A stretch of 64,000 bases of DNA. Source: Monocercomonoides exilis PA203 (Eukaryota > Protista > Preaxostyla). The notes below the pieces were generated by a model. It saw only the letters and a list, made by a program, of their open reading frames with translations, was not told where the DNA came from and searched no databases. A program made the position numbers and the translations under genes. The stretch covers positions 620,001 through 684,000 of the forward strand of contig LSRY02000048.1 in assembly GCA_001643675.2 (NCBI GenBank). Direction: 5' to 3'. Positions 18,740 through 56,623 of this stretch are shown here, one piece after another (the first letter of the stretch is position 1; every line of letters begins with the position of its first letter).

Positions 18740-21700
18740 CTAGATCGATTTGTATTGTCTTCGCTTCCTGTTTCTCACCACACAAACAACAATTACAACC
18801 GCCACAACTGCAGCAATAGAAAACACGCTCACAGACACAATGATTGACACCAGCTGGGCTGTTGTCAACTTCGGATCTTCTTTCTTCTGCTTTGCCAGAG
18901 TTATATAACCTGTGCTTTTTTCTCCTTTTGTAATTCCGCTCGGATATCTCAGCCGGCAAACCAACGATGTGTACTCGTCGCCATCCAGCAGCGATGGAGG
19001 AATCTCCACTCTCGTCTCTGTCTCGTTCACATACTCAGAAACAGGGCATTCAATCCACTCCTTTATTTTTCCCATTCTTTTCTTCGATGCTTCAACTATA
19101 AGTTCGCATGGAAACAGATAACACCCCTGAATCACAGCGCGTGCTCCTTCGTCTGACTCGATTATTCGACCTTTTCCTTGCTCTGCTGTCTCCTTGGCCT
19201 TTTTGATCATCGTTGCATTCTTCAAAACAGGACTGAAGAAATACGAGTCCATATTTTCTGCTGCTTGTCCACCAACCTCTCCTTCCACAAGCATCCCAAA
19301 TGGCTTCCCTTCCAATCCATCACTTCCAGCCGCCAGGCTGTTGATGAAAACTTGATTATATCCCATGCTGTCCAGGAATCGAATGTTGTTGTGCAATGAT
19401 GCAAACTTTTCCCAATTCTTGCCAATCGGGTGATTGTTCACAAAGCTGCAGTTGTTCAAGCTCAGACGGGAATGCAAGGAATAGATCACTCCTTCGCTGA
19501 TGTCCAAAAATGAGCTGTCATTGATGGTAATGTGAAACATTTCATATGTGCAAAGCAATCCAGAATCCCACGAACACAGCAGATTTTCCTCTTCTCCGAT
19601 TTCATTCTTCTGATCGCTGATTGTAAATGATTCCTCGAATTTCAAAAGGCTGCTCTTCTCCTCTCCTTCTTTCTCATCTTTGCATTCGTTGTGCTGCTTG
19701 CTGCTTGTGATGTTTCCGTTTCTCCCGTTAATGACCAGCTGCGAAAATGTATTCGATCCTTGGCTGGACACTATCAGCCTGTACGGAAGAGCTCTTCCTT
19801 CCCCCCCTTTCACATTTTCTCCTTTCAAGCCTGTGTACCACGGCCTGAAGACAACATCTGTTAATTTCAAGTTGCGTTTCGAATAGATCACATCCAGCGC
19901 GTCTCCTTCAATGGCATCTGGATACTCGATGTCAATGTGCTCAAACTTCAGATAATAATTGTCCATATAAAACACAGCTGTTGACTCCTCCGCTTTCATA
20001 TTCGCCCCAATTCGAAGGATGCCCCGATTCTTCTTTACAGCTGAGAACATTTTTGAAGCTGTGCCAGATCCCTGTTCCCATTTAGATGATAATTCAGATG
20101 AAGGTTCAGACGCAGAAGTCAGTGTTATGTCCTTGTCAATCAAAAACGGCTCGTTTACGAAAACTCTTCCAATCACATACATCGTCATAACTTCAATATG
20201 GATTCCATGCTTGATGGCTGTGCTGAGCAGATCGCACGGTCTTTCTTTTGCCCCACAGACCTTGTCGTCGCTCGCCTTCGCTCCTCCAACATAAATATTC
20301 TGAGAATGGTACGGCAGTCTGTTCGCTTCGTCGCTCAGAAGATCAACAACATTCGCCTCTCCCCCTTTCCTTTCTTCCAAAAGCATCAGATTCGCTTTTC
20401 CATATATCTCTTCCATCTCAAATTCAAACAACTCCTCTTTTATCTGCTTCCTTCCGCTCGGAAACGAAAGATACACAAGCTCTCCTCGGTCTGCCCAGCA
20501 CTCACTAAATCTCATCCCGTTCAATCTCAAATTCACTGCTCCTGTGATTTCATCAGCAGCCCAAATAAACATCGCTCCGCCTTTCGACTCTTCGTTCAGC
20601 ATCAACCCCTGTTCATCTGAAGTCATTTGCGCACCTTTGCACGAGCAATTTTTGAATTCAGCACCGTAAAAGCTGTAATAATTCCCATTCCCAATCTCCA
20701 AATGCAGCACTCCTCCCAGTCGATGTTCCGTTGATCTGCAGTTAGAAAACTTTCCATCGTCAAAGCTCAGATGCTCGCACTCCGCCAAAATAGTAATAAT
20801 TGACTGTGTTGTGCTCGTTGAAGAGATTGTGTCCATGTTCAATCTAATAAAATCAATATATTTCGCAGCTTCCACCAAGACGAGTGCAAAAGAAGATGTG
20901 AAATGAGAGATAAAGACTTCATTCAGAGTGAGCTTTCCCATTTTGCATTCGATCAGCACACAGTTTAGAATCTGTTGAGAATCGGTGCACGAGATGTTCA
21001 CTCGGTAGATGTCAGCACACGCCCTGTCTCCATCACACACAAACAGGCCATTGTCTCTCCCGCTCTGTCTCGTTGTATCCACTTGCACATCTGCTCTGTA
21101 CAGCCCAAAATTCGCATTTTGCCGCACATTAAACAGTCCCTCGCCCGGATGCGCCTTCGCTTCGTCCAGCGCTGTTGTGATGCTGATGACGTTTTTTTTT
21201 CTGTTTGTGACTGTGGCAGACCTCTCTTCAATCATTATTGGCTCTGCGTCGTATTTGTTGCCGTCTTCTGCTGCATACACAGTAAATGCTCTGCCTGGAA
21301 GGCATTTCAAGAGAGCTTGCTTCATCGTCTTGCAAGGTCTTTTCCTCATTTTGCCACATTCCGCGCTGTCTTCTCCATTTTCTCCATCGACATCGATATC
21401 CAGCGTGTCAAAGCGCAGCCAGTCCTCATAAAATACAATTGCTCCATCTTTCTTTATCGCTCCAACTCGATGGTCTTTCGTCACGCTGAAGGAATCTGCG
21501 TCAAAAGGCGTTCGGCTCATTTCAACGTCTCCTTCACTGCACAGCGCAAGATCATTTCCGCACTGTCCTGCTGAATTGCCTCTGAAGAAACAGTTTTTGA
21601 ACAAAATTTCGTCGATCAGCCTTGTCTCTTCTCCCAAATGTATTGCCATCCCTCCGCCTGTCTTTGCCTTGCATCCCCGAAATGTGCCGTTTCTGCATTC

Positions 21701-22834
21701 AAATCCTGCCATCTGCGTCAGATCACGTATCGCCAGCCCTCCTCCATCCGCAGCTGCCTCACAGCTGCGAAACTCCACATTTTCCAACTTCACTTTCCCT
21801 TTCATTGCGCCAATCATCGCCCCTCCCCCACGAACAGCCCTTCCCCAGTCAAATATTGTATCGACAATGTTCAGTTCACTCTCCGGGTGCATCATCTCAA
21901 AATAGATGCAGCCACCATTTTCTGATTTCTGCGATTGCATCGAAGATATCTTGCATTCAGATATAGTAATCGCCACTTTTTTGTCTGCCCCACTTTTCGC
22001 TTCGAGCAGCGCTGGCCCTGCATTTCCCCTCTCAACAGAGCCAAAGTGGCTTCCTTCCAGTGTGAACGAAGACCGAAGTTCCAGGGCACATTCTTTGTCG
22101 AGCTTTGCATGGTCCATTTGAAGACTCTTCAATTTTTGAACAGCAACATCTTCGGATATGTGCAGGATGGCCACACTAGAAAGATAGTAATACCCCAAGA
22201 AACCCCAATGAAATCCATCAATTGACAATTTTCCTTCTGTTATTCTCAATATCGAAAATGGCGCATATTCATCTGTCCATTTTTGAAAACATATTCCAAC
22301 ATGCCTCATCGTCAAGGCTCCCCCAACGCCCCTAGAAAGAATCACCGCGGAAGAGGCGTCTGCTTCCTTTGATAGCTTATCAGTTTTGAATGGAATAAGA
22401 TTAAACATCAAATGTTCCAGCGTCAGTGTTTTCTCATTCACCATGTGGAACTCCCCTTTCGCAACAATGCCATCCAATTCAAAATCGAGTGTTTTGCCCG
22501 CGCCCTGCTTCGATGCTGCTGCTATCCCAAGGCTGAAATCTTTCAAAAACTGAAAACCGTATGGAATTTCAGCGGAATCAACAATTTTGACGGACTTATC
22601 CCCAGGACCTTCCCCAAGCAGCTCAATCCCTTTCGCAATTGTTTTGCACGGATCCGCTTCACTTCCACAGTTCTGCTTCGAATCGTCTCCTTTTTCAGAA
22701 ATAAAAACGGCATCAACAGCTGCCTCGGGACGGCCATCGGAAAATGCATTTGACCAATTTTTGTTATCGCGCTGCGGAGCGGGACAACTGGCAAACAGAC
22801 AGTTCGCGAGAATCAAAGTCAAAAACATTTTCAT
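18740..22834 (-). CDS. Large Cys-rich type-I surface protein (beta-helix/Pmp-like repeats), 1364 aa
   Basis: Single intronless ORF with a signal peptide (MKMFLTLILANCLFA). It has three CG-x(4-5)-PC modules and repeated GG(G/A)-hydrophobic plus FxxC motifs. The C-terminal TM helix is followed by the tail RNRKRRQYKSI*. Confidence 0.9.
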   Translation of the reverse strand: MKMFLTLILANCLFASCPAPQRDNKNWSNAFSDGRPEAAVDAVFISEKGDDSKQNCGSEADPCKTIAKGIELLGEGPGDKSVKIVDSAEIPYGFQFLKDFSLGIAAASKQGAGKTLDFELDGIVAKGEFHMVNEKTLTLEHLMFNLIPFKTDKLSKEADASSAVILSRGVGGALTMRHVGICFQKWTDEYAPFSILRITEGKLSIDGFHWGFLGYYYLSSVAILHISEDVAVQKLKSLQMDHAKLDKECALELRSSFTLEGSHFGSVERGNAGPALLEAKSGADKKVAITISECKISSMQSQKSENGGCIYFEMMHPESELNIVDTIFDWGRAVRGGGAMIGAMKGKVKLENVEFRSCEAAADGGGLAIRDLTQMAGFECRNGTFRGCKAKTGGGMAIHLGEETRLIDEILFKNCFFRGNSAGQCGNDLALCSEGDVEMSRTPFDADSFSVTKDHRVGAIKKDGAIVFYEDWLRFDTLDIDVDGENGEDSAECGKMRKRPCKTMKQALLKCLPGRAFTVYAAEDGNKYDAEPIMIEERSATVTNRKKNVISITTALDEAKAHPGEGLFNVRQNANFGLYRADVQVDTTRQSGRDNGLFVCDGDRACADIYRVNISCTDSQQILNCVLIECKMGKLTLNEVFISHFTSSFALVLVEAAKYIDFIRLNMDTISSTSTTQSIITILAECEHLSFDDGKFSNCRSTEHRLGGVLHLEIGNGNYYSFYGAEFKNCSCKGAQMTSDEQGLMLNEESKGGAMFIWAADEITGAVNLRLNGMRFSECWADRGELVYLSFPSGRKQIKEELFEFEMEEIYGKANLMLLEERKGGEANVVDLLSDEANRLPYHSQNIYVGGAKASDDKVCGAKERPCDLLSTAIKHGIHIEVMTMYVIGRVFVNEPFLIDKDITLTSASEPSSELSSKWEQGSGTASKMFSAVKKNRGILRIGANMKAEESTAVFYMDNYYLKFEHIDIEYPDAIEGDALDVIYSKRNLKLTDVVFRPWYTGLKGENVKGGEGRALPYRLIVSSQGSNTFSQLVINGRNGNITSSKQHNECKDEKEGEEKSSLLKFEESFTISDQKNEIGEEENLLCSWDSGLLCTYEMFHITINDSSFLDISEGVIYSLHSRLSLNNCSFVNNHPIGKNWEKFASLHNNIRFLDSMGYNQVFINSLAAGSDGLEGKPFGMLVEGEVGGQAAENMDSYFFSPVLKNATMIKKAKETAEQGKGRIIESDEGARAVIQGCYLFPCELIVEASKKRMGKIKEWIECPVSEYVNETETRVEIPPSLLDGDEYTSLVCRLRYPSGITKGEKSTGYITLAKQKKEDPKLTTAQLVSIIVSVSVFSIAAVVAVVIVVCVVRNRKRRQYKSI

Positions 22835-25336
22835 AGAAAGACAATTGGTTGTTGATCAACAAAAAGAAAATTATTATCAAAAGTGTAATTGTTCTTTAAA
22901 ATTCTTTTTGCGTCTTTCTTTTTGGAAATATTGCACCATGCTCCAGATATTTTTTTTCTTCCTGGGGTCGCAGTTTTTACATTTCGGAATGCATATCAGA
23001 AAGAAAAAACAACATATTTTCTGCTGTTTGAGTAAGAAGAAAAAGAGACATATTTTTGTGTCGACGAATAATATTTCATTTTTATACTGTAATATTTTTC
23101 CTTCCACTTTTTGTATGTTTCATTTAAAAAAAATAACAACAAATCATTCATTCAAAGAAAATGAATCGAAACAGTTGCTTCAAAACAAAAATTGCAACAA
23201 AGCAAGAATCTCAAAAACAACTTTTTCATTTGATTCTTTCATTTGTGTCACACGAGAAGGGATTCTTTGAAAAGGAAGATAAAAGCTTATGTGGTGCTGT
23301 TTTCCCAGCGAATGAGGGCAACTGAGGCTTTGGAGAGGCGTGAAACTATTCTGATTGGCCCATTGATATTCACTCGCTCCGATCTTCTTCGCGATGACAT
23401 TCATCCCATTTGCTCTGGAAAGCCAGCACTTCATATGTTGAAGCAGAATCGATTTTCCTGATGATGGAGCTTCCCATTTTTTTCTTTTCTTCCATCGCAG
23501 CTTCCTCTCTTGGGTTGTGTTTGGCCATCAGTTTCTCTTCATTGTTGATTCTGCCTTCAAGCAATCGCTTTTCCCCCTTCTCTCCCAGAAATCTTGAATC
23601 GGTGCACTCTGGTGCGTTCGTCCTCTCTCTTTCCTCTTCTCATCGACACCTTCAAATGTGCCTGCGTCTCTCAATAACTTGAACCGTATCCACGTCATCC
23701 ACACGTCCTACGCTGCTGGTGCTGACTGAACGGTCATTCGGAACATCAGAAGGGCCACCACACAGAACAGCATGCTCGCGTCAGTCACAAACAGAACACG
23801 CAAAGCAGCAGAGACTTCTTTTTGCAAATGCTCATCTCACAGCATGCCCACAGCTCCAGAAACAGAACAGACAAAGGAATCGCCAATGTTGCAAAGCAGA
23901 GACCTCCACAATTCATTCCCATCTGCTGCTATTTGGATCATCAAAAAAAGGTCAATCGCCAAATACATACGCACACCCGCACACGCGCGCAGTGAACAGC
24001 AGAAGGCAAAACAAAGCAAATGGCAGTTCGTTTTCTTGAGACAAGAACAATAGAATATTATTCATGACAGTTGTGAGTGAATGTCTGCAGATGGCTGAGG
24101 AAAGGGAATTTGGTTGAAAGGGAAGCAAGTATGAAGGAGATAAAGACGAGCCGCTGTTGAAGAAGATGCGCAGAATCCAGCGGATGCAGAAACAGAAACA
24201 GAACAAGAAGAAGATGATGATGACGAGCTGAAATCGAATGATATTTTTTCAGGCCAAATGTTGAACATGGAACCGAAGAAGTTGTTGTGGAACAGAAACA
24301 TTTAAAACTGCCCTTGTGATAAATAACGGAAAGGCTGAAAACATGTTGCAAACAAAGCAAATCATGATTGATACAATTTTTTTTTCAAAAGAGTATAACA
24401 AAGCAGAAGATGCAAATCAATGTGGAGCAAAGCTTAGTAACACAATGAGAGACAACTTATCTTCGTTTGGATCGTTCCTTCAAAGGCTCGATTGCCTTCA
24501 TAATCGCAATGCACAAAATATTCTTCTGAGAAAAACTTCGATCATCCAATTCATTTCCTTCACTCATTTATTGTCATTTTCCTGCCTTCTAATTGGACAA
24601 CAGCTTTCTTTGTTGAAAACGCTCCAATATGTTTCTCTTCTTTTTCAAGAATTCCAAATTGAAAAACAACTTGTTTTCGCTCCTCTTAACACAGCTGTTA
24701 ATTCTTGCTAAACTTGTTTTCATCTCAATCACAGCAAAAGTTGAATGAAACTGCATTAAATCCGCATATTCCTTTGTTTTCAGTTTATTATTCTATTCAA
24801 AGCTCCTTTTCTTCCATATCCTGCTTCACAAAGCAAACTAATCACCTTTTCAAATGAAAATCAGACATTTCGCTTTTCAAAAGGCTGCAAATGGAAAGAT
24901 CTTCGCATTAATCGTGAGACTCTCATCATCTTGAACATGGCAATAAACAACAGAAACAATTGAAAATTGTTATTCATTCAAAGGTATTTCATATGAAATA
25001 ACAAGAAAATGAAAACCAAATTTGACGATTTCTTGTGATTGCCTCCGGCCATCACTGGAAATAATTCTCACGATTCAGAGACAGATAATGCATGATTATC
25101 TCTCACTTTGCAATGGACCGTTATGTTTTGAAAAATTAAAAATTAAAACAAAGCGATCCAAACAGCCATAACAACAAATCCAAATTGTTGAATCGTTGTT
25201 CTTCTTCTCAATTACTCTCCAAAAATATTAATATTTTAAAGATAAGTTTGAATACAGAAATTTAAATGACTGTGAACTCTTTTCATTTTTCAATTTTTCC
25301 GAACTGTTTTGTTTTGTATCTGTGTGCTTGAAGAAA

Positions 25337-28535: not shown

Positions 28536-30038
28536 TTACAGGTGAACAAGATAATCAAATGAATCTCTTGACAGTTGGTAATTTGGATTGTTGCTGATGA
28601 TATTCAGCAGCGTTCCATGAAAGCTTGTGATGATATCTTCGTGTCCTTCTTCTTCCATCTTTTCAAACAACTCTATTTTTGCTGCTTTTCTTTTCGCTTC
28701 TTCGATTTCATCATTTGTATTTCTTTTCAATTTTCTGGAAAGTGCAACAAAAAATTCCAAACAACTGAATGCATTTGAGTCTTCAATTGTTATTTGCTGA
28801 ACTTTCTCCAAAAACACATTAACAGCTCCACTTTTCAGCAATCCATCAATTTGAATATCTCTGTTTCTCGCTGCAGTTCCCAAAGACTGAATGCATTGCC
28901 TATAAATATCTCCATGATTATCCTTTGCTGCTCGAAGCACTTGAATGACGCTTCTGATAACTTCAATAATTTTTTCATTCCTCGAATTGCATGAGGATAA
29001 ATAAATTTCCAATACTTCGAGCCATCCTGTCAAAATAAGCTCTTCTTTCATTTCATTTCTTTCCTTTTCTTTTTCATGCTCTTTTTTCTCGCAATCAATG
29101 CATTTCTTCAGTTCATTCATTTCGCTTTGAGCTTCTCTCACAAAATGCAGCTCATCAACAACACTTTCCAATTTTTCTTCGTAGTATAATCCGTTAATCA
29201 AAAACTCCCAAGCGCACTGATACGCAAGTTGAGTGAGATTTCCACACTCCTGATGATATTTGATGACATCTGTCATCTCATTCAGATACAGCTTTTTTTT
29301 GATCTATTTCAGAAATGGTGTTAAAAATTCATAAGAAAAACAATAAACACAAAGCAGTATCATGCCTTTTATCTGTAAAAGCAATTCAGCGCTATCAGTG
29401 CAATTTCCACTTCTTTTTGTGTTTTTTTATTATCATTTTTGCTCGAAGCTGCTTTCACAAAATAACGTAAGCAAATAACTAACGATTTTCTAGGAATCAT
29501 GCACTAGCGCATCACTGTACAGCATTCACAAAGATCTGTTAGGAGCCTTTCATTCTTTTCTTGTTTCTTTTTTTCTTCTTTGACAATCATCTTTTGAACT
29601 CTTTTATTCAGCTTTGACTAATGAAAACTGTTACTCCACTCATTTATCTGCTCTTTCCAATTGCCAATATGTTTCATCAGCAAAATAGCTCTGTTCAAAG
29701 TCAATTTCTTTTCTTCAATCATTTTAATAATTTTGTCATAATTCTTTTTTGTAAATATTGAATGAAATTCTTTTTCTTTCATTTCTTCAATCATTACGTT
29801 CATCTCATCGATTTTCTTTCTCTGTTCATTCCCATTGCAATCTTCCAGTTCATCAAGCAACTCTTCAAAAAATTAATAAAATATTCAAAAATATCTGAAG
29901 TTTAATCAACAGAAAAAACCACAAACTTGAAAACTTTTCTGTAAGCTCTGTCTTGAATTCTTCCTCTTCCTCGTCATCCCAATCCTCTTCTTCTTCCTCT
30001 TCTTCCTCATCATGATCGACTCCATTAATTTTACTCAT
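28536..30038 (-). pseudogene. Helical 3-exon family, copy 5 (nonsense mutations)
   Basis: Exon 1 is 29927-30038 (acidic, ...KTELTEKFS) and the intron is 29863-29926. Exon 2 has in-frame TAG at 29618-20 and 29504-06 and TAA at about 29369-71, and the second donor reads gcatga. Exon 3 (28536-29303) is open. Confidence 0.8.
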
Positions 30039-30414
30039 TGAATATTCTAAACATATGAAATGAATTTCAAATATAAACGAGCTAATCGAAAAACACAAAC
30101 ATCTTTATTTATCTCACAAAATAAAAATTATACAACTTCAATTTCAAATGCTATACTTTGGATAAATTAGAAGCAAAAATGAAAGTGAAGAATAGCTGTA
30201 ATTGTTTGTTTCACACCAATATTTTGCAAATCAATCGTTTTGTGATCGAACTCACCATAATATGTCCAAATGCAATTTGAACATGTAAATAATTGGGTGA
30301 TTTTTTTTTTTGATATCATAAATAATTCCGACGTTTGATCAAAAAATATTTTCATTAAGGGTTGCTCAAAAAAGAAAATTGAAAGTGTCATTCATGTAAA
30401 AATATTGCATAATA

Positions 30415-33400
30415 GATACAATGCAGATTAAATTGGATCATTTGAATTAATAGAGGTTTTTTTAATAACCCTATGTTAATTTGAATAAAGACCACTTAAT
30501 TCAAATTAAAGGCCAAAATTTAAAAATCACCATCCTAATTCAAATTAGAAAAGATCATTCAAATTAATAATAATTGTGGGAAAGGAAAATAAAACAATCA
30601 AAAAACACTTATTAAAATAAAGTGGAAACAAAAGAAAAATTAAACCTTTTTTAACAGTCTTATTAACCAAACCTCGATAATTCGATTGAAGCTTGTTTAC
30701 ACGCTAAATTAAATAAATGTTAAATAAATAATTTGTCAATAAAGAAAAATGATAATTTGTTTTGAGTTTTGTGTGAAGAATGATTCGCTTCGAAGATAAT
30801 TTTTATAGTTTTTTGCATAAATAATAAAAAGAAAACAACATAATTCTGACAATTTTGTGAAAAAAAATATTTTTCCTGCTAACATTTCATTAAACTGTCA
30901 ATATTTTCACAACAAGCATTGCACAGCGATGTTGAAGTTGTGGAATCAAAGGCTAATTTCTTTTGCTTTTATCATTTCCTCAATTTCATTTAATTCTGTC
31001 GATCATGTTTTTTTCTGATGTTTCTATTTCAAAAATTAAAAATGATCTTTCTCTTTTTCTTTCTTAAAAAACTCCCTCTTTCTTTTCATCTTGTAAGTCA
31101 TCTTTATTTTTGTTATCAATTCTTTCAACATTTTCATACCACATCCTCGTAAAATCTCTAATGCCAACTTCTTTGTAAAGAAGAACATTTTCTTCCTTTC
31201 GCCTTTGCATCTATTTTTAGAAGCATCCCACATTCTCTGTAATTTTTTCCTTTTTTTTATTTTCTCGATTACCGTTTTCCTTTCGCTCACACAGCAGCTG
31301 GAGAAGGTTGTGTCACTCACCGAAAACGAGTTGGCAGAGGCAGATGAGGCGAATGAGATGCACCCGCCATTGGTTGCAGTCTGTTGGCATTGTGGAGCTG
31401 AGTTGATGTTGATCATGGTGCAGTTGGCGAGGGAGATGGAGAGGGCAGGGGAGGTGGCAGAGGAGAGGACACAGCTGGCGGGGGTGGTAGTGGAGGTGAT
31501 GCTGGTGATGTTGGAGGAGTTGAGGGTGAGGGGAGCGGTGAGGGAGGTGAGGTGGAAGATGCTCTGGCTGTTGAGGGCGAGACTGGTGATTGCTGTGTGG
31601 TTGAGGGCGAGGGAGCCAGCAGTGAGGAAGAAGAGGGGGGTTTTTATTGTTGTGGAGGTTGTTCCGGTGATGATGGTTGTGTTGAGGTTGAGGGAAGGGG
31701 AGTTGCCGGAGAGGTGGAAGAGGATGGGGGTGATTTGGTTTGAGGAGTTGTGAGCGATGGCGAGGGCAGAGACTGTGAGGGAGCCCTGTGTCTGTTGGAA
31801 GAGGGCAGACGAGGCAGATGGATCTGGTGAAGATGATATTGATTGTGATGACTGTGAATGTGAGTTTAGTGGTTGAGGAATGCCACTGGAGGAGATGACG
31901 GTGGCAGTTGTGCCATTTCAAGTTATTTTTGTTTCAACCTCACAGAATGCAGGAGTCTTTGTGGGAGTGAAAGTGGAGACGAGAAGAGAGAGGGAGGTAT
32001 CGCTGAAGGGAGCAATGCATCCGAGAGCATACTCCACTGTGGCGCATGGACTTTGCTGTGTTTTTCCACAGGCATCGACATCACTTCCACCATTTGCAAC
32101 AATTTTGTTCTGGTTGATGATTGGAAGCCAGCCATTGTACACATCACTAACAGCTGTATTCTCATTCCACACTCTTTTTGATGAGGTTGTTGATCCGCAT
32201 TGCTGGAAAGGAGATTGAGTGATATCACTTCCGTAAAAGAACACATCATTCCCTCTTCCATTTTTGGCAGTATTATCATCGAAGAAGCAGAAAGTGATGA
32301 ATTTAACTTCATTCATCCAAGTGAAGGTGTTTTATGTAACATAGCCCGGCTCCTCCCCATGAAGATGATGAATTTATCAATTTGTTATTAATGAACTGGA
32401 ACTTTTGTAGGAAATATTGAAGAGGTGTTACTGGTGGAGGATAATTAAATGTGATTGCTCCGGCCGCATCACCGCCAGTATTTGCAACGCATACACAATT
32501 TTTGAACAAAAATTTTGCATCTGGTGGCATGTCGTCAAGGGCAAAAAACTAACCAGTTCTACCCCAACTTGTTATTGAACAACTTTCAACTCTGTTTTCT
32601 ATTAGCAGCCGAATAGAATTTGTCTGCATTCCTCCAAGGCAATTCGCTCCTCCACCAGCAGCTGAACAATTTGTGTAATTGGATTTCGTAATGTTACCAT
32701 GAAATAAATGCAAGCTGTATGACGCTTCTCCTTCACCATTGGATGAACTATTGTGAAAAGAACATAATATGACTGTGAGATTTGCATTTTCGCAGTTGAC
32801 TTTATGTGCTCCACCTCAATCGCTTCCACCATTTGTCATTCCATTCGCACCACTCGAATCGATGGCTGTTCACATAAAACGAAATCAGTCTTCCAGGTTT
32901 CTTTTTATTAGTTTCATTTCCAATGTGTTCAACAGGAGCATTTGGTGTAGAGCTTGTTTGGCGAAGAAAGAAGGTGTCAAAGGCAGAGAAAAAAGTGTCG
33001 GAGCTGTAAAAAAAAGAAAAGATAGAACTGTTGATGATGGTTTGAGTTTGCTGAAAAAGAAATCTGTCAGTCGGGACACGATAGAATAAATGTTTGCCAT
33101 AATTGAAAAAAGAATTTCATTTGCGAGTAATCCTGGGGATAGAGTGTGTTATAAATGTGGGATATTCAAAGGCAAAATGTTTATAGAATTTGGAACTGTA
33201 AGAAAATTGTGTAATTTGCAAAATTAGAAGATAAATATCGAAAAAGAAAATTTTGAAATAATATAAAATGTTCTTCATAAAAAACGAAATTTTGAAAAAA
33301 AAAAAAACCATATATACCTTTCAACGTTCAGTGTTTTATATATTTCTTGTTAACGATTTTTAACATTGTTTTTCAGCAAGGTGAAAAATGAAAAACAATA

Positions 33401-33936
33401 TTGTTTGAAAAGTGCTGTTGCTTAAAACAAAAAAAGCATAATTACCTAATGAGCACTGAACAAAATTGCACAGAAGTGGCCGTTGGTGCTACATTTTTAA
33501 AGAAACTGTTTGCATTTGCGAAGAAATAAACAAAAAATTTGAAAAAGCTTTTATGATTTGTATATTGGGAAAAATGAATTTTTAATTGTTAAAACCATAT
33601 ATACTCGCATTATATAACTCACGTTTTCGATAACATAAGTTGGAATAGCATTTTAAACGAATTAACAAAATATTCTGTTTTTTCGAAGTTGATTATTGAA
33701 AGATCAAAATTTTTGCAAAAAGAAAATGAAAATTAACTTCAGTTTTTTATATCAATCTATTATGCAAATCATTTAATGAGATCTATTTTCATGTTTTGAA
33801 CATTCAATTCAAAATAGGATGAAGATTTTAAAAATAGGCCAGTCAATTTAAATAAACAGGGGTTATTTTAAATAACCCCCACAATTTTGAATTTTTTTTT
33901 TCAATTTGAATTATGTGATCCAATCTGCATTGTATC
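30415..33936. mobile_element. Non-autonomous TIR element A (3522 bp) with 5-bp TSD TAATA, carrying a surface-protein gene fragment
   Basis: Perfect 15-bp terminal IR GATACAATGCAGATT (30415-30429 / 33922-33936), extending as about 140 bp of imperfect arms. TAATA is duplicated at 30410-14 and 33937-41. No transposase is recognisable inside. Confidence 0.8.
31270..33100 (-). pseudogene. 5' portion of a Cys-rich surface-protein gene (cargo of element A)
   Basis: Broken frames encode ...FCFFDDNTAKNGRGNDVFF..., DACGKTQQSPCATVEYAL and a Ser/Thr-rich region ending TNGGCISF...FSSCCVS. There are multiple stops and frameshifts, and no TM region. Confidence 0.75.
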
Positions 33937-34699
33937 TAATATTAGATAAAATGTGAAATGAATTGGTTATTTCAAATTATTTGTGTTATTTCAAGTTTCA
34001 GCCACGAATTTTGAATTAACCCAGTTATTTTGAAATAACCTTGAAAAACTTAAATCTACTGGACGTTTTTTAAAAACATTAAATAAAAATATTTTTGATA
34101 TAAAAATGGTTTCAACTATATTTTGAATTTGAATATTTGACCTATCTTTATTATGAAAATTTGCATTAGATTAATTATTGGAAACTTTTTTTTTGTTTGT
34201 GATAATGAAAAAAGTTTTAAGATTGCAAAAAACGAAATATATATATGAAGATTGTTCCCATTCGTTTCAAATATCATCAGTTTGCTTGAATGGTAATTGT
34301 TGATTCCTTACTTCTAAAGCTTTTGACAAATCACAAAAGATTTCCCTATAAACGTATCTACATATTCAATGATCTTCTTTTGTCAAAATAAACATGTGGA
34401 AAACAGAAATTATCGATTTTATTTTGTAATGACTCGAAGAAATCATTTCCAAATATTTTTTGTCAAACAGTTATGGTCTTCCAAAAAAAAGAAAGCGTGA
34501 AATTCTGTCAAAAGGATTTTATGTCAAATGATTTGCGCGAAATTCGACAAAAAGATAAGATTATATTTATGAAAATTTGGGCATATGAAGATGAAATCCT
34601 AAATTTGAAGAGTGAATTTAGTTGAAAGAAGAAATGCTATAGAAACAATGAAAAACGACTTATTCTCAAAATTTTTCAGAACTGAAAATCTGTCTTGGA

Positions 34700-35380
34700 A
34701 TTGCGAACGGTAATGGAGAGAGTGCATGTGTGTTTGAGTGCTCATTCACTTCGTGTACACTCACAAATAATAATGGTGGAAGGATGTATTGTTATGGTGT
34801 TCCAGCTGCATTCAAAATGAGGAACATCCAGTTTATTTCGTGAAACACAACATCAACAGGTGGAGGATTGTATTTTAAACAAATCAACAAACAATCCCAA
34901 GCAACAACCTTTATTGCTACTTCTTCTTCTTCTTCCATGATAGCAGATGCACAACTACTTCCACTTCATATGGACACGATGTTTATAGTGAAGATGATTA
35001 CAATCTCTTCTCGTCGGACAATCCGTTCTATGAATCGTCCACAACGAATAGCAACGATAAGAAAGTGTGCTATTGAGAAAATGGAGCATATCAGCATACA
35101 GAAAAGAAGGATTGGCTGAAGGAAGGGATGAATGATCGGTATGTTGGGGTGAGTGGAGATGATACAAACAATCTGTGTGGGATGAGTGAGGCAGCACCTT
35201 GCAAGACAGTGGGGCATGCAGTGGAGTCGAGCATGGTGCAGCTGAGCTTCTCGATAACGTTGCATAAGGGAAGCGTATAAGAGAAGAGAAGAAGAAAAGC
35301 ATTGAGGAAAAGAAGATGATTAATACAGGGAGAGGGAAAGAGGTGAATGTGATTGGGACGAGTTCACTTTCTTCTTCTTC
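34700..35380 (+). pseudogene. Internal fragment of a Cys-rich surface-protein gene (cargo of element B)
   Basis: The broken frame reads GNGESACVFECSFTSCTLTNNNGGRMYCYGVPAAFKMRNIQFIS*NTTSTGGGLYF ... KKDWLKEGMNDRYVGVSGDDTNNLCGMSEAAPCKTVGHAV. Confidence 0.7.
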
Positions 35381-36149
35381 TTTCAAAAACAGAAGAAGTG
35401 TTCAGTTTATCGAGATACCATTTAAGAATGAATTTCAAAAAGATTTATTGCAAAACAACGACTGGTTATTCATCTAATGTGGTGATGGAGCTTACAGAAA
35501 CTGGGAACTTTCATTTCATGGAGCATTCCAAAAGAAGATAGAAAGTTTTATGATAGCAGTTGTGGGACAATTGTCAAGTCTACAGAAATGAAGGCAAGCT
35601 GCGAGCAGGAATCAAACGGCTGATCATGGAGGTGACAAAATTCAATTTACGCAAGTCAATAAAGACGAAAGAATTCAGTTCAAAAATGCAAGAAAATGTT
35701 GCAGAAGCAATGAAGTCGCTATATTTTAACGATTTTCAAAATTCATAATTCTTTCGAATGTTTTTTAAAAAAAAGAAAATACTTTTCACTTGCGTTAATG
35801 ATTTCTCAAAACATGATTTTGTAATCTTTTTCACTTGTGAAAGTTCAAAGTGAAAAGTTTCACATTTCATTTTTGAAAAATGTTGTTTTAATGAATTTTT
35901 GAAGATTGCAAATACTTTAAAAGACTCGTGATTTTTATGTTTAAGTTTTAAAATAGATATTTTTCAAATAAAAATATTTCTTTGAAATTCAGGCAATTGA
36001 ATGTTCTTCTCAAGTCAAATAAAAAGAAAAATTTCAAAAAACTAGTTACTCAAAAACAAACAACTTCATATTTAGTAATTTGTTTGAAAAAACAATCCAT
36101 TTTCAAATTTATCACCATTCACAACAATGCAATTATCGAACACTTCTTT

Positions 36150-37030
36150 TTCCATCTTTTTCAATAACAAAAGTTTCGTAACTTTTCGTTTTGCCAAGAG
36201 GCTTTCATTCTCCGTATTTTCGGTTTTGCATGAATATTTTAGAAAATCTTTGTATCATCCACAAGTCCCTCATATGCTCATCTGATCGATCTTTTTCACC
36301 AAGACTGCATCGGCTTCTCAGATTTCTGACAAAACTTCAGCTTCACATATTGATTATCAACTGCGCATTTAAGAAAATTCATGCATTGCTTGCTGATTTC
36401 TCCATCATCCCACTTAGCTTCCCTGAATTCCATACAACGATGCACGTGAGCACTTCAAATTCTTCATTCTTCAACTGGTAAAAGCAAAGATAATGCTTTG
36501 ATGCAATAATTATCAACATTTCACTTAGTCTTCTTTTCCCACTTTCATTTGTCCCTTCCTCTGCCAATCAAAACCCTTTTCAAACTCTGACAATTCTCTC
36601 TTGCATCTCTTCCAAAACTTAACTCTTTTGAAATTACATCTTTGTAATCTCGTTGAAAACTTAAATGCTTATCAATAACTGTCAAACAAACTGATTGATA
36701 AGGCGTTTCGAGTTTCGATGTTCTCGATGATTTTGAATGACTTCTGCCATCTCCTTCAAATGCAATTCTTGTTCAACATGCTTTCAAACAACGAGAAAGA
36801 AATTAATAAATGAACAAAAATAATTCGATTACAAACTTTCCACATATCAACGTTGCTCACCATCAGCTTTGATAATTCCACTTCTTTTGAGTTTAATTAT
36901 TTTCTTCTTTCTTCATAGGAAACTTTCAAAAGACAAACCACGTAAATCAAAAGAAATATTAATGAATATGCAGCTCAGATAAATGAAACACACACAAAAA
37001 TCAATCAGTCCTTTCATTCTGAAAACTTTC
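36150..37030 (-). pseudogene. Helical 3-exon family, copy 6, heavily degraded (cargo of element B)
   Basis: Minus-strand remnants ...YVVCLLKVS...QKEVELSKLMVSNV, then an intron-like stretch, then HVEQELHLKEMAEVIQNHREHRN...YQS...QLKNEEF... These match the end of exon 2 and exon 3 of the intact copies. Boundaries are approximate. Confidence 0.65.
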
Positions 37031-38405
37031 TGTTTCTGCTGTTTCTTTTAACAAAGTCCAAATTCAAAAAGCTATTGTCTTCGAAAAAAAAGAAAGAATG
37101 ATTTATAAGATTCAATAATTCATTTAATAACTGTTTCGCACCAGCTAAGAATTTTGTATTTTTGAATATTTTTTATATTAGCAAAAGCGTTAAATACAGA
37201 AAGATTCAATATCTATTTTCAAAACCAAAATGAGAGAAATCTTGAAAGAAGAGAACGACATTAATAAAAAATATTAACTATAGATATAAGCAGTTGATGT
37301 CACTCAGTTTTTGAATGTATTATTGTTTTCATACAATATATGTCGGAAAATCATGAAAATATATTGATCATTTGCATAACTTTATGTTAATCAATCAGAA
37401 TAACTCAAAATATGACTAAGAAATATATAGTATTGTTTTATATTGTTTGTTGATTAAAACAGAATCAATCGTTTTTGTTTATTTTACTGTCACAATTAAA
37501 AACTGAAATTTTTGAATTCAAAAAATGTGTATTTAAATATAAATAAGTTCAAACTCATTTTTAAATGGATTCAATTCTTTGTATAACATTTGTCTTCATG
37601 TTTGAATTAATTATTTTGTGAAAAAATGATATTTTTTCACTTTCATGTTAAAAGATCAAGCTTTTTTGGAAAACAAGCAAAAAATGCTTTATTTGCTTAA
37701 AATATAACGTAATATTTAATGTTGATGCGTTTTTGACTTCCACCCTCAAAACATTGTTTTTTGATAAATGCAAGACTGTCAGGTCACAATTGAAAAAAAC
37801 TGGTTTTTCTTAAAAACACTGCCTTTAATTTAAAATTACTGGGGGATCTTGAAATAAATAGTTTATTTTGAAATATATTTTTATTTCACAATTTATCTAT
37901 TAAATTATTATTATTCATTTTGTAATTTTTCTAAGAAATTAATTGTTTTTATTTCTGATATAGAAAAAATATTTTATTTGATTTTAATCTGTTTTAAATT
38001 GTTTTTATTACAAGTTTTGAAAAAAAAATTAAATAAATTATTCGAAAATATCAAATCTTCAGAAAACAGAACAAAAAGTCAGTTTGCTTGTTTCAAAAAC
38101 ATAAATAAAATTATTTGCATTATGCTTAAGACTATTTCTATAGGAAAATATAGCAGTGGTTTCGGTTATTGATGTGTTATTATCAAAATGGAATTATTAA
38201 TCTGTAGCCATTTATTGAAATCTCTCAATTTTCAAAGCAGTTTTCATTTTTAATGATTCAACAACAAAATTATTATCATATCAGCAATAGTGAGCAACTT
38301 TTTTTATTTATCAACAAATGTTTCTCAGAAAGAAACACATCAAAAAAATTGATCCAAAAAAGTTATAGAAAAAAATATTAAAGGAAAACGTTTTGACAAA
38401 AATAT

Positions 38406-41389: not shown

Positions 41390-42564
41390 TTCACATCAGC
41401 CGGTGAACTTGGTGTAAAAGATAACGTGTTTCAAGAAAAGGTTTGCGAGCTGAAAGAGTAATTAAGTTATGCTGCGAGATAAATATCACAGAAAGTGCTA
41501 AAGATAGAAGCAAACAACGTTGGCGACATTTTCTAAGGAAGGATTTGGATATTGAAAAGATGAAACAAAAGGAAAAGAAGTTGCGGATGGAGAAGGAAGT
41601 TTGAAAATCATTTCCTTTAAAAGAATGAGGAGAAAAAAAAAACAAGATGGAGTCAGTTGTAATCATCAATTGAATGATTCCCCAACTTATCTAATTCATT
41701 TACTGAAACAATTTGTCCGCACAGCCGGATCGGTGATTTACCAATGCTGTTGAGTTGGGGGAAAAAAAAATAAAAACTCACAATTTTCATTTTTTAACAG
41801 TCAAACAAATTTTATTACAAATAATAATCTTTTAAAATCTTTTTCAATAACGTTTTCAATCAATTTGATCGTTTTGCGAGTTTCATGCTTCATTTCATTT
41901 TGAAAAAGAATTTTTCAATCCTTTGTTTTTTTTTTGAAATTTGATCAACACATTCATTTGAGCAGAAAATATCAAAAAGGTATGTTTTTTTATTTTTATT
42001 TTATGAATAAAACGAACCAATATTATGATAAAAAATTTTAATGTTTATGAAAAATCAATTTTTGTTCAGTGATCAAAAAGTTCCACAATATTAATTATTT
42101 TTCCGATTTTTGATCTTTTTTTATGATTTCAAAAAAAAACACCCAATTTTTCTCTTTCTGAAGAAACCAACGATTTGTTCAAAACTTTTTATGCATCCAT
42201 TTCACAATCGGCCTAACATTATGATACAAAAAAGAATTGTGGATTATTGAATTTCGAGAAAGATTCAAAAATATTGAATGGAAAAAAAGGTCTAAAGCAA
42301 AATATTCTGGATCAAAGAACATCCAATTTTTTGAATTTTTGAAGGATTGATCACTTTAAACAAAAAAGGATTTTCTTGATCTTCCAAGCAAAACATTTTG
42401 AGCAGGCTTTATTCAAGTTATTTTCTTGAAACAGCATACACTTATCAAGTTTATCTGCAATTAATAATGTTTTCGCAGTGCTTGTTTGAAATTAAAAGAT
42501 GTTTGTGTTTGTCTATAATCTCGTTTTAAACTTTGAGTTATTTTTCATATGTTCAGAACAAATA

Positions 42565-45792: not shown

Positions 45793-45971
45793 TGTCACAC
45801 AAAAAATAATTCTAATTCGAAAAAAAATAATTCGATTTCGGAATTAATAATACAATTTCGTAATTTATTAATTCAATTTCGAAAAAGAATAATTCAATTT
45901 TGAAATCGAATTAATAAATTCCGAAATTGTATTATTTTTTTTCGAATTAGAATTATTTTTGGTGTATGACA
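45793..45971. repeat. Foldback/hairpin element (MITE-like) built from ~21-bp subrepeats
   Basis: aaaaataattctaattcgaaaaaaaataat is present on both arms in inverted orientation, with outer tgtca...tgaca and internal aattc(g/a)atttcg units. No clear TSD. Confidence 0.75.
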
Positions 45972-46314
45972 AAAAATTACACAAATAAGTGATTTCAAAA
46001 ATGAAATATTGCCGAGAAAGAACAATATTGATATATGAAACAGAATTCATTCTCATCCTTTATTCAAGTTTATTTCATCTCAAATAGAAAGAAAGCTTCC
46101 GAAAAATGATTTTTAAAAAAATTTAGAACAAACAGCAATGAATTTAAAAGAGATAGGTGTTTCCTGTTGAGGACCATCTTTTAAAACTAATATGAAAGGA
46201 TTCTACAAAGAATAATTTGTTGACAACAAATTCATTTTTTATCACATTTTTTGTTAATTATGCCCATATTTTATAAATATCACAGAATAGAAAAAAATAT
46301 TCTCTTGAGGAGCA

Positions 46315-49300
46315 ATGCTGACTATTTTGATTTATTGCCTGTTATGTCGTCATGCAATGGAACTTGATAATCCAAGTTATCAATTGTCGAAAAACATTAA
46401 CGAATGCAGTGAAAAAGACAATCAATTTATTGTTTCTGACAAAGAATCAAAATCTCTGTTGTATCCAAGCGCAGATCCGAGTGAACAAATGAATGCAACG
46501 AAGAAAGGAAAAGAAAATATCGAAAGTACTGCAATGACTGAAACGTTGAAGTCCGCAATTGAAAAATCATCAGATTATTCAGAAAAAAATGCTCATGACT
46601 CGGAAATAATAACCAAATGCAGTGAAGATGTTCTGCACGAAGATGATCCAATAAACGATAGTACTCAAATGAATAATGATTTGTTGAATAATGAGGAAAA
46701 AGAGGAAGTTTTCTTAAATGGAGAAGATGGGAATGATGATGCAGAATGCGGAAAATCAGAATCGAAACCCTGCAAAACAATAAAAAGAGCGGTCGAGAAA
46801 TGCATTCAAAAAGAATCAATAATTTTATGCACAACTGAGGAAAGTAACAAATATGATGCTGAGCCAATCACATTTGAAGATCGGAACGTTGAGATCAAAA
46901 GCAATGACAACTTCTTCATTACAATCATCACTGCTTTAGATGAATCAAAGGTTCAACAGGGTGATGCACTGCTAAATATTAAGCAAAACGGACGTCTTAC
47001 TCTGGAAAAAGCATATGTTCAAGTAAATTCTTCACGTGAAAGTGGCCGAAATCAGGGTTTGACTCTTGTAGAAGGAGATAATGCGACTTTTAAGGCTAGT
47101 CACACGCATATAACAATTGCTGATTACGAGAAAGGGTTGAATTGCGTTTTATTTGAATGTAAATTAGGATCATTGCATTTTTTTGAAACAGAAATTTCGC
47201 ACTTTAGATCTTCTTTCGCTTTAATACATGCAGAAGTATCAGATGCAGTTGTTTTCTTTTGTTCAACGTTGAATGGACTCACAACAACAAGTACAACACA
47301 ATCAGTAATTACGATTATGAGTGGATGCAAGCTGCTGGCTTTGATAGATTCAAATTTTTCAGATTGTTGCTCAACAGAACATAAACTAGGAGGGGCATTA
47401 TATTGGGAAATAGGAAACGGAGATAATACTCATGAAATAGCAAATTCAAACTTTTGCAATTGCTCTTGCAAGAGCAAAGAAGCAAACGGACATCAAAACG
47501 AAGAATCAAAAGGTGGAGCAATGTACATTCGTGGAAATGATGGAGTGATCGATGCATTGAATCTTTCTTTGAAAAATGTTGCATTCTCCGATTGTTCAGC
47601 TGACAAAGGTGAATATATATTTTTGTCTTTGGCATCTGGCCGAGAACAAATACCGGAAGACAAATTATCATTTGATATGGAAGAGATTTATGGAAAGCCA
47701 AATTTCATTTTATTGGAAGAAAGGAAAGATGGAATTGGCAACATTATTGACCTAATGAACGATGGGACAAAAAGGCTTCCATATTCTGCACAAAATATCT
47801 ATGTTGGAGGAGAGACATCAAGCCAGGAAAAAACTTGCGGAAGGAAAGAAGAACCTTGCAATTTGTTGAAAACAGGTAAAAGCCACATAGTCAAAGGCGG
47901 TCATGCTATGATATTTGTGATTGGAAGAGTTGCTGTTGATGAACCATTTATATATGATGAAGCTGTAACATTAACATCTGCCATAAATGATTGCTCAATG
48001 CCATTTTCTGAAAATGAACAAAAACGAGGAATTCTACGTGTTGGAGCGAAGATTGAAGCTAAAGAATCAAAAGCTGTTTTTGAGATTCAATATCGTGATA
48101 CAAAAATTGAGCATATCGATTTTGAATATCCTGATGCCATTGAAGGAGATGTGCTGGATATAATTTATGATAAAAACAGCTTACAAATATTTGACGTGGT
48201 GTTCAGACCTTGGAAGACTGAGCTAAAGGGAGAAAATGTTCTTGGCGGAGAAGGAAAACCTTTGCCATACAGGCTGATTGTGAAAGAAAAATCAACGGGC
48301 GACATTACCAGGTTGGTTGTCCATGGAAGAAATAGCAATGATAATGGGGAAAATCATCGAAACAACAATCAAATGGAAAATTTTATAAAACTAAGTGAAA
48401 TGGAAGAAATCAAACAAAATTCTGGAATCGTTGAAGAAGTCGTAGAAGATGACAATCCGTTGTGTTCTTGGGATTCTGGACTTATATTCATTAATCAGGG
48501 TTATTATTCATACATCAACGACAGTTCATTTACCGATATCAGCGAGGGTGCCATTTTTGTGGAATCATCTAGTTTGAATATGAACAATTGCAGCTTTGAA
48601 AATAACCATCCGATCAATGAAGATTGGATGAAATTTCCTTCTCTGCATCACAACTTCCGTGTTAAGAAGAAAAGTACTGATGAATACATTTACATTAATT
48701 CATTGAGAAAAGGAAGTGATGGGACAGAGGGAAAGCCATTGGGAATGATTTCTTTTGCTAATGTTGGAGGATCTGCTGTGGATAACACAAGCTCACTTTT
48801 TTTCATACCTGTTTTGTTGAATGTATCTCTGGAAAAAGAGGATCAGAGGAATGTAAATGGAATGGTTTATCGAACAAATGACGAATCTGTCATTGCGGTT
48901 GTGAGCGGAGAATATTTATTTCCTTGCGGTTTGACGTTTGAAGCATCAAAGAAAAGAAAAGACCAAGAACTGAAATGGATTGATTGCCCTGTTTCAGAAT
49001 ATGTTAACGAAACAAGAATGAATGTTAAAATCCCGAAATCGGTTCTTGATATTGATGACTACACATCTATTGTCTGCCGCTTATCTTATCCAAATGGCAT
49101 GATGGATGAAAAAAAGAGCAAATCAAAAGAGTTTGTTTTCGTAAAGCAAAAGAAAGAAGAAACTGCAAATGACGAACCTAAAGACAAGAAATCTTCTCAC
49201 ATAATTATAATCGCTGTTTCCGTGAGCGTTTTTGTTGTGGTTGCAGTGGTTATAGCCATTGTTGTTATTTGTGTTGTGAAATATAAGAATCGCAATCGGT

Positions 49301-49329
49301 ACAAGTCAATTAACGATATATCGAAATGA
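46315..49329 (+). CDS. Large Cys-rich type-I surface protein, 1004 aa, paralog of 18740-22834
   Basis: Intronless ORF with a hydrophobic N-terminus and two CG-x-PC modules. It is colinear with the C-terminal ~880 aa of the 1364-aa protein (NKYDAEPI, EHKLGG, EESKGGAM, YPDAIEGD, LCSWDSGL, YLFPC, CPVSEYVNET). A TM helix is followed by the tail KYKNRNRYKSINDISK*. Confidence 0.9.
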   Translation: MLTILIYCLLCRHAMELDNPSYQLSKNINECSEKDNQFIVSDKESKSLLYPSADPSEQMNATKKGKENIESTAMTETLKSAIEKSSDYSEKNAHDSEIITKCSEDVLHEDDPINDSTQMNNDLLNNEEKEEVFLNGEDGNDDAECGKSESKPCKTIKRAVEKCIQKESIILCTTEESNKYDAEPITFEDRNVEIKSNDNFFITIITALDESKVQQGDALLNIKQNGRLTLEKAYVQVNSSRESGRNQGLTLVEGDNATFKASHTHITIADYEKGLNCVLFECKLGSLHFFETEISHFRSSFALIHAEVSDAVVFFCSTLNGLTTTSTTQSVITIMSGCKLLALIDSNFSDCCSTEHKLGGALYWEIGNGDNTHEIANSNFCNCSCKSKEANGHQNEESKGGAMYIRGNDGVIDALNLSLKNVAFSDCSADKGEYIFLSLASGREQIPEDKLSFDMEEIYGKPNFILLEERKDGIGNIIDLMNDGTKRLPYSAQNIYVGGETSSQEKTCGRKEEPCNLLKTGKSHIVKGGHAMIFVIGRVAVDEPFIYDEAVTLTSAINDCSMPFSENEQKRGILRVGAKIEAKESKAVFEIQYRDTKIEHIDFEYPDAIEGDVLDIIYDKNSLQIFDVVFRPWKTELKGENVLGGEGKPLPYRLIVKEKSTGDITRLVVHGRNSNDNGENHRNNNQMENFIKLSEMEEIKQNSGIVEEVVEDDNPLCSWDSGLIFINQGYYSYINDSSFTDISEGAIFVESSSLNMNNCSFENNHPINEDWMKFPSLHHNFRVKKKSTDEYIYINSLRKGSDGTEGKPLGMISFANVGGSAVDNTSSLFFIPVLLNVSLEKEDQRNVNGMVYRTNDESVIAVVSGEYLFPCGLTFEASKKRKDQELKWIDCPVSEYVNETRMNVKIPKSVLDIDDYTSIVCRLSYPNGMMDEKKSKSKEFVFVKQKKEETANDEPKDKKSSHIIIIAVSVSVFVVVAVVIAIVVICVVKYKNRNRYKSINDISK

Positions 49330-49766: not shown

Positions 49767-50717
49767 ATTTTTCGAAAAGTCTAATCAGTCGTATTTTGCA
49801 CATAAAAAGTGTTTTTAACTTAAATAAACATAAAAGCAAACTTGAAACAAGATTTCAATTTTGAATAATCAAATTAAATATGATATTTGAATCATAAAAT
49901 AATTCAAGAAAAGAGAGAAAATATTGAAATTATCATTCTTCATTAATGTTGTATAAAAAAACAAAACTTTTATAACTTTTTCGTTTTTTTGAGAAATGTT
50001 AAAATTTTTATTGAGTCAAATTATTAAAATAGTGAAACAAATACAATCTAAATCGTATGCAATCCCATCGAACACAATTCACATCATCTATTTTCAAAAT
50101 TTCCTATGCATCGACATCTTTTGCTTGTTTTTCACTTATTTTCCATCACAAACAATAACAGGGCCCAATATATATAATAACATTTTGTTTCATAATGGGT
50201 TCATTTTTAGTTGAAAAATTAAATTTTAATATTTTTAAAATTTATTCAAATGCATTTAATTATTGTTTTTGAAATGATTTAAATTATTTTTTCAATAGAA
50301 AAAAGTGCAGTTGTGAAGAATTTTCAAAAATTGGAAATAAAACCAAAAATTCAAAAATTAATTAATTGGGGGGAAAAACGGACTTTTATGCTTTTTTTTG
50401 CACAAAGCATGAAAATTTTGTTTCACTCGCAATATTATAAAACTTTATCAGATTTCAAAATGAATAAGATTCTCATTTCCATAAACCGGTGTCATTGATA
50501 TAATAGTTAAGAACAAAACCCGCACTTTTGCAAAAACCCGCACACTTGACATTTTCCATCGAAATGCTATTCCACTTTCATATGTGTGAAAGCGTTTTGC
50601 ATTTCATTTCCACCATTAACTATTATTTGTCCAATATTTTATATTTCGATAGAAAAATCAAAAACAAATAATTTTGATCTTTTTTGATCTTTTGATTTTT
50701 CAATCGAAATACAATTT

Positions 50718-50935
50718 GGCTGATCCTTTTTTAATTCTAACTTTCGTTCGAGTTTTGATTCAAACAATAATCTTAATGGGATTTTTCATAAAAAAAAAAA
50801 AAAAAATAATTTTCTTTTTTTTCGTCATCATGCATTGGATGTGTATACCGGTGTTGTTCATTTTTCCAAAACCCCATTAAGAACAAAATTTTGATCAAAA
50901 CTCGAACGAAAGGATGATTTCAAAAAGGATCAGCC
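50718..50935. mobile_element. MITE (218 bp) with ~65-70 bp imperfect TIRs
   Basis: ggctgatccttttt...ctttcgttcgagttttgat...tcttaatggg is mirrored by cccattaaga...atcaaaactcgaacgaaag...aaaaaggatcagcc. ATTT flanks both sides (50714-17, 50936-39). Confidence 0.8.
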
Positions 50936-51363
50936 ATTTTTTTGTTTATTTCATTAAGGGAATATAATTATTTTTTTATTTTTGTTTTTATTTTTTTAAT
51001 TTTGCTTGATACACATTTCATGAAATTCTAGTTCATGTGCGTTTGCTAATTTTGTTCAATCGTTCGGTGAATGTACAAGATTGTCTCTTCAAAGATAACA
51101 TTTTTCAAAAAAGGATGTCCTTGTCAAAAATAAATCAACTATTCCACAAAAAAGATGAAAATGCATTTGCCAAATTATGCATTCAAAGTTTAAACATAAT
51201 TCAATTTTATTTTGCATTTTACTAACAATAAAAGATAAATCATTTATTCAAGATAAAACAAAAAATGAAAATATCTTTATTTTTAAGATTAAAAATGTTT
51301 TCATAATTTTAATTTCAAATGTTTCGGTTCGAATCAAGAAAAATGAAGTGATCCAGAAATGTC

Positions 51364-54109: not shown

Positions 54110-56623
<2,514 letters not shown>

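Follow-up and report, generated by a model that had tools for sequence, protein, structure and literature searches.

Pangu elements, which are equivalent to Harbinger2 of Repbase (PMC12730594), have been described as DNA transposons generating ANT duplications and bearing terminal inverted repeats (TIRs) of 11–40 bp that begin with AG or GG, with a mean length of approximately 3487 bp; they were reported from 15 genomes, and metamonads are not among the groups given in the cited part of that description (PMC4482050). Plant Pack-TYPE elements, including Pack-PIF, have been reported to insert near each other and to be capable of fusion (PMC8903248, PMC6379663). As for Monocercomonoides exilis, 35% of the assembly has been assigned to unclassified repeat, much of which overlaps genes of the kinase family, the most numerous in the genome (PMC8767320, PMC6759080); the nature of this repeat could only be guessed at in the genome authors' account (PMC8767320). 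Genes annotated as "DDE superfamily endonuclease" (for example, MONOS_13569 and MONOS_14968), themselves unclassified, are recorded in this organism (PMC10703272).

In the window, i.e., the whole 64-kb stretch of M. exilis DNA analyzed here, two non-autonomous TIR elements, designated A and B, lie side by side upstream of a host gene. The features of the locus, with strands where assigned and with element boundaries according to a 3-bp duplication, are as follows.

28536..30038, minus strand: host gene MONOS_8840 of a large uncharacterized family, neighbor of the target
30398..30409, plus strand: host motif AAAAATATTGCA immediately flanking the target; this 12-mer also precedes a B-type end on a paralogous flank, at an equal offset
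30411..30413, plus strand: left target duplication AAT of A, inside TAATA at 30410–30414
30414..33937, no strand: element A, non-autonomous TIR element of 3524 bp, AGATAC…GTATCT, with a 16-bp perfect TIR
30441..30563, plus strand: A-left subterminal array of quasi-palindromic WTTNAAD cores approximately 19.5 bp apart
31282..33059, minus strand: cargo of A, a broken N-terminal piece of an M. exilis kinase family with PF07714 (protein match)
33807..33911, minus strand: A-right subterminal array of WTTNAAD cores (array scan)
33938..33943, plus strand: junction spacer AATATT, in which AAT at 33938–33940 (right duplication of A) abuts ATT at 33941–33943 (left duplication of B)
33944..37898, no strand: element B, non-autonomous TIR element of 3955 bp, AGATAA…TTATCT, with 15/16 terminal bases inverted
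33970..34075, plus strand: B-left subterminal array of WTTNAAD cores (array scan)
34918..35223, plus strand: cargo of B, a weak piece related to the same kinase family (28% identity, E value of 2e-5)
36448..37014, minus strand: cargo of B, a broken piece of the MONOS_8840-like family (E value of approximately 1e-6 against P0008 and P0042)
37789..37873, minus strand: B-right subterminal array of WTTNAAD cores (array scan)
37899..37901, plus strand: right target duplication ATT of B, inside TATTA at 37898–37902, with the joint of the empty site at 37898

We consider it fairly probable (approximately 0.6) that A and B are two Pack-type elements with AGATA…TATCT ends and 3-bp ANT duplications, which entered one repeated host sequence by separate insertions at targets 3 bp apart.

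If the duplications are 3 bp long, A and B start with AGATA at each of their four ends. A was the sole pair in the window combining 16/16 inverted terminal bases with a matching 3-bp duplication; 23 pairs reached at least 14/16 inverted bases, and since the 22 besides A passed at 14–15/16, a short TIR alone proves little. The scan relied on an 8-base seed and thereby missed B (15/16, seven perfect from the end), the two ends of which match at 72% over approximately 80 bp. A Pfam search of both elements in 12 frames read through stops (six per element) returned no family below an E value of 0.28, and no transposase was detectable in A or B; a reverse-transcriptase-like DLSKA motif in B gained no support from Pfam. 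Exact contigs internal to B had a depth of 255–365 in run X2, against approximately 100 for single contigs, so that B likely exists in three to four near-identical genome copies, with depth as a rough guide. A 13-mer spanning the left flank and terminus of A (30405–30417) recurs inverted in the right arm of A (33755–33767, minus strand), approximately 170 bp from its end.

At the four ends, the WTTNAAD cores repeat every ~19.5 bp starting from position 26, and AT-rich windows with at least four phased cores were all located at these ends and nowhere else in the window. These arrays are likely transposase sites. No further family ends were found within the window among 82 GATA-type candidates scored and in the array scan; a candidate at 45085 scored at background. 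Short inverted repeats at 45797–45965 (52 bp at 92%) and 50717–50936 (83 bp at 77%) are possibly MITEs of other families.

Both elements carry host gene fragments. The cargo of A showed 83% identity to residues 1–345 of MONOS_3818, the kinase domain lying outside the captured piece. In three of 27 homologues (MONOS_2942, MONOS_15897, and MONOS_15282, on contigs of three other lengths), similarity to the receptor ceases at the break point of A or a few residues from it, and A's own sequence follows, with tail scores of 144, 66, and 45, respectively; the remaining 24 scored no higher than 33. Judged from cargo and tail, the three are likely sibling copies of A.

The product of 28536–30038 was 100% identical to MONOS_8840 over 70% of the query, with all of the 42 matches coming from M. 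exilis, and the insertion target lies approximately 375 bp upstream of the annotated start of this gene. According to the contig depth profile, the left flank of A is a multi-copy upstream region, and a paralogous gene 94% identical accompanies the MONOS_8840 flank. The paralogous upstream region at 41.8–42.6 kb contains CATAATATT at a similar offset, a weak resemblance, since its alignment score of 102 falls within the null range (maximum of 109). At least six MONOS_8840-like copies occur on both strands of the 64 kb (4.7–5.9, 9.3–10.7, 16.0–17.4, 25.3–26.8, 28.5–30.0, and 42.5 kb), and the two members searched matched no Pfam family. A conserved motif of very high contig depth at 30288–30325, approximately 250–290 bp upstream of MONOS_8840, has a second occurrence at 42117–42151 upstream of the 42.5-kb paralogue (84% across 38 bp), and may possibly represent a promoter element of the family. 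Elsewhere in the window, the intronless ORFs at 18740–22855 (minus strand, 1371 aa) and 46309–49329 (plus strand, 1006 aa) seem related, contain cysteine motifs together with a hydrophobic segment at the C terminus, and are predicted to be likely surface proteins; the former gave no Pfam match.

The junction itself was located correctly in the preliminary description: the palindromic spacer TAATATTA (33937–33944) stands between the right end of A and the left end of B, forms the center of a 16-bp perfect palindrome (33933–33948), and occurs once in the 64-kb window. Folding of the junction as a cruciform was no better than that of shuffled sequences (z = -0.56). The arrangement had been called tail-to-head, which holds only in terms of coordinates, cross-element comparison of the ends of A and B having yielded z values of 1.6–3.0; a head-to-head orientation, with the right end of A homologous to the left end of B, was plausible by eye and gained no support from the scores. 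The two 5-bp duplications had further been described as overlapping by TA. With ends drawn as GATA…TATC, A spans 30415–33936 with TAATA on both flanks and B spans 33945–37897 with TATTA on both flanks, and the letters are as described; the overlap itself does not follow from them, since a 3-bp reading, in which A and B are 6 bp apart, fits equally.

The choice between 3 bp and 5 bp was addressed at the family level by using contigs of four DNA runs (X1–X4), all from one sample. Alignment to 33866–34015 yielded 297 contig pieces, 32 of which underlie the figures given here; 30 of the 32 reach an element end (12 of A-right type and 18 of B-left type), while the other two begin inside B. All 30 end-reaching pieces run through T33937 or A33944, and the base adjoining GATA was invariant in every one of them, whereas the outer base of the presumed 5-bp duplication varies; T33940 was not reached by 13 of the 18 B-type pieces. 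A 5-bp CANTA duplication in free orientation predicts stops at positions 33936 or 33945, which occurred in none of the 32 pieces, although mismatches close to the end of a piece may be concealed by the aligner. Of the 73 loose-end rows, 24 were examined, 16 of which lay at 33937–33943 and supplied the flanks, the other eight being inside the elements and uncounted. These flank rows repeat loci across runs because the four runs represent one sample, and most are the consensus of two to five contigs with an agreement of 0.6–0.8.

As to the target, the strict TAWTA preference previously proposed is refuted by the flank rows of family ends, just 7/16 of which carry TAWTA (TATTA or TAATA), the others reading CATTA (3), CAGTA (2), TGTTA (2), CAATA (1), and TATTT (1). 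The idea of a non-random, quasi-palindromic target is nevertheless supported: a central ANT was present in 14 of the 16 rows, the remaining two reading GTT, which suggests a preference of approximately Y-ANT-R. TANTG adjoining GATA was absent from the flank rows, though a free-orientation 5-bp duplication predicts it at about the same frequency as CANTA adjoining GATA. A long (TAA)n microsatellite at 54572–54790 is the source of many TAWTA words in the window.

Because of the invariant base adjoining GATA and the central ANT of the flanks, we read the ends as AGATA…TATCT with 3-bp ANT duplications, an assignment in which we have good, though not complete, confidence. No copy at a C-ANT or other non-TAWTA target was observed at both ends in the rows and pieces examined, so that a 5-bp duplication is disfavored and not more. 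On the 3-bp reading the duplications abut (A-AAT next to ATT-B) and the overlap vanishes, its striking appearance probably coming from element ends drawn one base too far in.

In contigs of runs X1 and X2, the left flank of A was joined directly to the right flank of B at 37898, constituting an empty paralogous site. Positions 30408 and 37903 are separated there by nine letters, two being different from the empty site predicted from the window, and this length fits a 3-bp or a 5-bp duplication equally. A 2-bp TA duplication of the Tc1/mariner type would leave 15 letters there and was rejected.

With regard to the frequency of such adjacency, YANTR accounts for 1.4% of window positions. Given this density and an 82-Mb genome (PMC8767320, Table 2), random use of YANTR is expected to produce 0.0006, 0.005, or 0.06 abutting pairs for 100, 300, or 1000 copies, respectively; summed depth at the ends in contigs of X1–X4 suggests tens of close relatives, and the A–B junction was selected for its oddness. 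One contig (X4 record 27) carries a B-left end with one difference in 68 on a paralogous flank lacking both A and A's AAT target. Compared by eye, this flank has in common with the left flank of A an uninterrupted run of 13 letters, which includes AAAAATATTGCA and lies at an identical offset (chance probability of ~1e-5 as a rough estimate over the rows examined), and it differs farther upstream. The site thus exists in three versions, namely empty, with B only (one contig), and with A and B, where the B-only case could stem from an old duplication and gene conversion.

A target-site hot spot, as suggested in the preliminary description, is therefore likely, because chance adjacency is rare, the paralogous site is empty, and a B-only contig occurs at the same position; its cause, however, would be the repeated host sequence rather than an element end. 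Insertion beside existing ends, the cause originally put forward, was not supported by the rows examined, in which neither a joint nor a second end appeared and one B-type end stood without A. No second end-to-end junction was found in the four runs, and none of the four single-contig flank rows had a second end beside the first; this search was insensitive, since the window's own junction was absent from the 32 of 297 pieces as well. A candidate second junction (X3 record 19) aligned to 33909–33951 and then departed from B, and was therefore discounted. Composite mobilization of A and B did not occur at this locus, since the outer duplications differ (AAT and ATT, or TAATA and TATTA), and it is possible in the future; the idea itself has already been published, in that fusion has been described for plant Pack-TYPE elements (PMC8903248, PMC6379663). 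A pattern scan of metagenome contigs returned 121 loci, which we regard as chance matches because none had a blastn or tblastx match to 29.4–39 kb and none had a TIR with a duplication. An unrelated repeat of approximately 50 bp, also a chance pattern match, was present in many of these loci (L009, L017, L025, L026, L034, L035, L080, and others), with two copies 1.1 kb apart in L034/L035.

Several other explanations were weighed against two separate insertions in a repeated host sequence. A transposase drawn to existing ends, building tandem arrays or composites through overlapping 5-bp TAWTA duplications, is distinctly improbable: nine of the 16 flank rows are not TAWTA, the 32 of 297 pieces contain neither a stop at 33936 or 33945 nor a joint or second end, a B-type end occupies a homologous site without A, and the outer duplications are unequal, even though all four window flanks are TAWTA, the length of the empty site suits 5 bp as well, chance adjacency is rare, the subterminal arrays could recruit transposase, and neighboring insertions and fused elements are documented in plant Pack-TYPE elements (PMC8903248, PMC6379663). 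Somewhat less unlikely is a 3-bp duplication at no special site, A and B having met by local hopping or luck among AT-rich intergenic YANTR words and the B-only flank being an old segmental duplication. The abundance of YANTR (1.4%), the selection of this junction as unusual, a local insertion excess reported for maize Pack-PIF and Pack-hAT (PMC8903248), and the multi-copy flank with its 94%-identical paralogous gene would all suit such a history; the expected number of abutting pairs (0.0006 for 100 copies and 0.06 even for 1000) is nevertheless small when depth suggests tens of close relatives, and a flank diverged upstream next to a B end 98.5% identical fits a separate insertion better.

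That A and B belong to a different superfamily generating 5-bp duplications (hAT5, Ginger2, or Transib-like) at an orientation-biased YANTA target seems very improbable. An oriented target would likewise hold the proximal base constant at one end type, and 5-bp and 4–5-bp duplications are reported for hAT5 (PMC12730594) and Ginger2 (PMC10045372), respectively; the termini, however, are unlike the GG of Merlin, the TNT of IS481EU, and the TA of IS3EU as given in the cited parts of PMC8101967 and PMC10045372, and AG together with ANT fits Pangu on two features at once. That the junction is an assembly artefact fusing two repeats is hardly credible, as the outer end of each element is bordered by a matching duplication and two runs contained a paralogous empty site whose length agrees with the prediction, despite the lack of a bridging contig among the 32 of 297 pieces.

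Under the preferred reading of two separate insertions, a PHIS-type DDE transposase encoded elsewhere would act in trans by binding the ~19.5-bp arrays, excise the element, and integrate it at Y-ANT-R by means of a 3-nt stagger. Within the empty site TAATATTA, two such targets, T-AAT-A and T-ATT-A, would then lie back to back, and it is this pairing that would account for the abutting layout once two independent insertions had filled both. The site would be hot because the transposase favors the DNA upstream of genes belonging to one large family, and not because one element end draws in the next element.

A Pack-type family carrying kinase-gene fragments provides a concrete and countable mechanism for part of the unclassified repeat of M. 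exilis, and would place gene capture, together with ends of the Pangu/Harbinger2 type, in a metamonad; the junction is of less importance, adjacent insertions being already known. A bolder proposal, which we regard as rather doubtful, is that a Pack family of Pangu-like type, so far undescribed, targets a conserved position upstream of MONOS_8840-like genes while carrying MONOS_8840-like and kinase pieces. If true, such a family would actively drive the shuffling of gene families in M. exilis and would partly explain the "unclassified repeats overlapping protein tyrosine kinases". We found no published description of the family, although Repbase or the supplement of PMC6759080 may already list it.

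Among the known systems, the Merlin elements of Monocercomonoides (PMC8101967) resemble A and B in being TIR-bearing DNA transposons of this genome, but the cited account gives them 8-bp duplications here and the GG termini of their superfamily; with no 6–9 bp duplication found at A or B, an identity with Merlin (8–9-bp duplication, GG termini) was rejected. NuwaII, as described in the cited part of PMC4482050, shares the 3-bp/5-bp ambiguity of a palindromic target (C-TNA-G), settled there as 3 bp, and differs in its TNA target and GG termini, as against ANT and AG in A and B. Like Pangu/Harbinger2 (PHIS) elements (PMC4482050, PMC12730594), A and B have, on the 3-bp reading, TIRs beginning with AG and a terminal TIR of approximately 16 bp (16/16 and 15/16 inverted bases, respectively), are 3.5–4 kb long, and probably duplicate 3 bp of the form ANT (AWT in several families); AAT/AAT and ATT/ATT are present in the window, with no two-ended non-TAWTA copy seen. 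In contrast to Pangu, the autonomous copies of which have a transposase of the DDE_Tnp_4 / DDE_Tnp_1_6 type and a second ORF, A and B encode neither, carry host cargo, reside in a metamonad, prefer Y…R outside the duplication, and have phased 19.5-bp arrays over 110–150 bp, longer than the Pangu TIRs in the cited report. Since no transposase was found, assignment to Pangu draws on the ends and the duplication, and the membership is putative.

The Pack-TYPE elements (Pack-MULE, Pack-CACTA, and Pack-PIF; PMC8903248, PMC6379663) are, like A and B, TIR elements that lack autonomy and have captured gene fragments; they have common arms and a variable interior, and their closely spaced insertions are proposed to fuse into composites. 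A and B correspondingly have TIRs and duplications around host gene fragments without a transposase, and are dispersed in several copies, as seen in the many family ends on differing flanks, in B contigs at three to four times single depth, and in the three homologues that run on into A's sequence. The Pack-TYPE elements of the cited accounts were described from plants, whereas A and B occur in a protist, are separated by just two duplications, and have not moved as a composite. A and B function in the manner of Pack-TYPE elements, have ends of the Pangu type, and constitute a new family of the established Pack type.
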